Assembly (NCBI GenBank): GCA_031279715.1
Contig: JAITHY010000040.1
Coordinates: 1 to 38,075, forward strand
DNA from: Verrucomicrobiales bacterium
GTDB taxonomy: Bacteria; Verrucomicrobiota; Verrucomicrobiia; Methylacidiphilales; JAAUTS01
Reading direction: 5' to 3'
DNA: 38,075 nt
The stretch itself is not shown here. Continued below: a report on this DNA, generated by a model with database tools.

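Follow-up and report, generated by a model that had tools for sequence, protein, structure and literature searches.

An exact recount of the window gave 115 copies of the 7-mer in 38,075 nt, with CGCTGAC present 61 times and GTCAGCG 54 times on the plus strand, exactly reproducing the manual tally in an earlier note made by a model that read the sequence alone. Among all 7-mers of the window CGCTGAC ranks second, behind the low-complexity CGCCGCC. The 21 coordinates that this reader had listed for the 12-mer CGCTGACNGTGA were all correct, and exact search of the window found none missing; the overlapping pairs at 29156 and 37219, the perfect palindrome at 14501–14515 and the partial palindromes are also all present. 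In the ‘tandem’ form, the extension of a single copy (GC-TGA-C) doubles as the core of the next. The logo of all window copies reads g-c-CGCTGAC-G-(G/A)-T-G-A-(c/g), with zero information outside positions −2 to +13, and the looser 12-mer CGCTGACNNTGA occurs 41 times.

These counts far exceed what composition or codon usage would predict. Compared with the 115 observed copies of the 7-mer, dinucleotide shuffles of the window give 7.2 ± 3.1, Markov models of orders 1–3 predict 7, 17 and 30, permutation of codons within genes gives 19, and a synonymous-codon shuffle in which every protein is kept averages 28.8 ± 4.0 and never exceeds 44, so that the word exceeds even the highest value of the codon-shuffled null that the earlier note had suggested. 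For the looser 12-mer, the 41 occurrences compare with 0.05–0.5 under Markov orders 1–3 and 4.9 under the synonymous shuffle. A fifth-order Markov model, also suggested there and here trained on the window, expects about 101 copies, a ratio near 1 for the 7-mer that the note had formally counted against enrichment, but it under-predicts the 12-mer 8-fold, and the test is circular because in 38 kb its expectation is built on counts of the word's own 6-mers. Real DNA of other genomes is the better control: mfd-region loci of other bacteria (n = 78) hold 0.0–0.6 copies per kb, and nine other Verrucomicrobiota loci, pooled to 190 kb, hold 43 copies, or 0.23 per kb.

At the start of the contig, the minus strand carries a proB cut off by the contig edge (5′ part only, 3–395), a gene for a YqjE-like membrane protein (715–1101) and one for an ElaB/YqjD-like protein (1105–1410), and the longest plus-strand ORFs in 1–1500 (386–805 and 971–1471) were rejected as genes. 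The other genes are those for a Wzy_C/TPR protein, mcsB, clpC, ftsK, a rodZ-like gene, a CDP-alcohol phosphatidyltransferase, a sigma-70 factor, a CitMHS_2 transporter, a Zn peptidase, a GT2 glycosyltransferase, a phosphoribosyltransferase, pfk, a CHAP-domain protein, the 420-aa conserved protein hyp420, pdxA, surA, mfd, GTP-PEPCK (pepck), an acrB/MFP/OEP efflux set, lysR, an epimerase, a CHASE2 protein and atpG. The 106 wholly intragenic copies use several frames, being read in sense as Leu-Thr (40) or Ala-Asp (27) and never as CGC-TGA-C, which holds a stop, and in antisense as Val-Ser (22), Ser-Ala (15) or Gln-Arg (2). Seven copies lie wholly between genes, within 2,010 nt, and the resulting 3.5 per kb against 2.9 per kb in coding DNA bears out the view that the word is equally dense there. 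Per gene, mcsB, pfk and the epimerase carry none (0 per kb), clpC, pepck and sigma-70 carry 0.4–1.1 per kb, and pdxA, CHASE2, GT2, CitMHS_2 and atpG carry 5–8 per kb. The earlier note had also argued from an enrichment in mfd and from inverted pairs at the ends of genes; neither is supported, since the density in mfd (3.2 per kb) equals the window mean, inverted pairs at ≤60 nt number 8 and 7 where arithmetic from densities gives about 5 each, and terminator-like hairpins are close to shuffle level and seldom include the word. Two strong hairpins lie in spacers. One, in the CHASE2/atpG spacer (36454–36480), has a 10-bp GC stem (ACGCCGCCCG...CGGGCGGCGT) with one copy spanning stem and loop; another, downstream of pepck (25410–25446), is a classic terminator between an A-run and a T-run, with a copy 9 nt off.

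The window spans one whole contig of a MAG that NCBI lists as Verrucomicrobiales bacterium (locus tags LBD30_; protein MDR2462481.1), for which isolate and study names suggest a termite-gut origin. Relatives were gathered via Mfd and via hyp420, and the comparison covers 38 kb of this genome and ~70 kb from five relatives. Two of these, L002 (a MAG with locus tags LBK60_, JAISCS01; 2.2 per kb) and L161 (a MAG with locus tags LBK76_, 65% GC; 2.5 per kb), share CGCTGAC and its GG-TGA extension with the window, which we call the G dialect. The other three, L001 (on the 509-kb contig JAIRPN010000013 of Cf509_bin41), L166 and L167, nearly lack CGCTGAC; most frequent in them is CGCTAAC (also CGCTAAT) with the extension GG-CGA-a, at 1.3–3.9 per kb, which we call the A dialect. 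The dialects differ at two positions, CGCTGACGGTGA in G and CGCTAACGGCGA in A. Position 7 is the loosest of the G dialect, CGCTGAT being 4.7-fold over expectation; CGCTAAC and CGCTAAT occur 30 and 18 times in L001 and 12 and 9 times in L166. Each locus has similar counts on its two strands (61:54, 24:24, 11:11, 23:25 and 10:11). Outgroups L162, L163/L164 and L165 (hyp420 identity 66–69%) and all other loci have neither dialect, nor does any other word dominate in them. Word-bearing genomes form one clade in trees of four concatenated proteins and of hyp420. The hyp420 tree, with all six, places the G clade (window, L002, L161) as sister to the A clade (L166, and L167 with L001), and the concatenated tree, in which L001 is the sole A-dialect genome, agrees.

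Aligned by codon across six genomes, outgroups among them, mfd, surA, pdxA and hyp420 yield 43 site positions, with site-level statistics resting on 16–24 sites per genome. At nearly all 43 positions the genomes are separated by substitutions alone and outgroup sequence is unrelated (1–6/10 matches), so the sites were made in place and not inserted, as the earlier note had proposed checking. REP and MITE repeats are ruled out because the flanks are unconserved and the origin is not by insertion, and we reject as extremely improbable the broader account in which composition or a mobile repeat produced the word. Turnover is rapid, with 12 of the 43 positions found in the window only, and a same-dialect partner keeps a site identical in 33–75% of cases against 22–29% for the remaining 7-mers. 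Between dialects, only 1/24 window sites is still CGCTGAC in L001 (background 19%) and 3/24 are CGCTAAC (background for that single change 2.6%), while of the 8–9 CGCTAAC sites in L001, 3–4 fall where the G clade has CGCTGAC. At coinciding sites the extension mostly switches too: in pdxA, CGCTGACAGTGA and CGCTGACGTTGA in the window stand opposite CGCTAACAACGA and CGCTAACGCCGA, respectively, in L001, and L166 contributes more such conversions. At hyp420 columns 657–658 (window 19727–19738), G genomes have CGCTGACAGTGA and A genomes have CGCTAACGGCGA on the opposite strand with a one-base offset, either an orientation flip or independent gain at one place. Sites lie in less conserved columns, conservation between the two word-free outgroups being 57% there against 72% (p = 7e-4). 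Most core variants with one mismatch are 1.3–4.7-fold over expectation and near 1 in outgroups, and no transition products among them are specifically depleted.

The word shows drive-like dynamics, and the combined facts about its sites require a process with four features. Such a process would read all 12 bp of the word whichever way it is oriented, would favour each change toward it, would meet resistance only from protein constraint and mutational decay, and could shift in specificity, dragging existing sites along. We propose biased DNA uptake in natural transformation, to our knowledge the only well-understood process with these features; an undescribed drive unlinked to uptake seems distinctly improbable. 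Biased uptake is the account offered for the DUS of Neisseriaceae and the USS of Pasteurellaceae, whose published properties match those of the window word point by point: density of copies, balance between strands, reading in several frames, sparing of conserved residues and dialects tracking phylogeny. On these grounds we prefer, with about even confidence, a DUS/USS-like tag that would mark the cell's own DNA, with uptake, a receptor and competence inferred.

The DUS/USS/HIP1-like reading of the earlier note stands in its main line. Of the features that define DUS and USS, the word has four: it is abundant, it is balanced between strands, it behaves in coding DNA as they do, and it has dialects. 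The kind is further marked by terminator pairs, for which the window gives the pair and hairpin counts above, and by two functional traits, preferential uptake and a receptor with competence genes. Membership of HIP1 is ruled out because the word is not a palindrome. A HIP1-like word linked to methylation or nucleoid structure would be consistent with the conservation of sites but inconsistent with the word's asymmetry, length and mismatch spectrum, and we consider it unlikely. Chi and KOPS are ruled out because the word has no strand polarity. That an abundant DNA-binding protein occupies the copies, or that they serve as a self-DNA marker of that sort, appears rather improbable. In behaviour the word appears to resemble DUS and USS, belonging to neither family: the best matches (AT-DUS 6/12, USS 4–5/9) are no better than those of shuffled words, as the claim that it matched no known word implied, and its host belongs to a different phylum. 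When the word is read on its complementary strand, both dialects align in register with Neisseria AT-DUS ATGCCGTCTGAA at 6/12 positions, TCACCGTCAGCG having CCGTC in common with it and TCGCCGTTAGCG GCCGT, which we treat as coincidence because 39% of shuffled words score as well. The searchable literature describes uptake sequences in Neisseriaceae and Pasteurellaceae only, and reports no such words for Verrucomicrobia or termite symbionts.

Several other features of the window were observed. Sigma-70-like promoter matches are about twice shuffle level in both halves (17 vs 7.3 and 15 vs 6.7), and GC skew is negative across most of 8–34 kb. The ORFs of mcsB (protein arginine kinase) and clpC (3351–7012) overlap by 4 nt; this pair, typical of Firmicutes, lies in a Verrucomicrobiales genome with Gram-negative-type surA and acrB/OEP nearby. 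Pfam and NCBIfam give no match for hyp420 (19103–20365, minus strand), yet its homologues number at least 7,999 at E < 1e-20, and it directly follows mfd-surA-pdxA in every Verrucomicrobiota/Methylacidiphilales locus examined. No copy of the word lies past 37231. The contig end is AT-rich (43–52% GC), with an 8-nt repeat (CAATTCGC, 4 copies, 37633–37665) and a 21-nt tandem repeat (CATCAGTCGTTGATGGAGTTC, 11.4 copies, 93% matches, 37815–38053) whose six frames on both strands are open over much of its length and encode 7-aa repeats; this repetitive end is probably why the assembly stopped.
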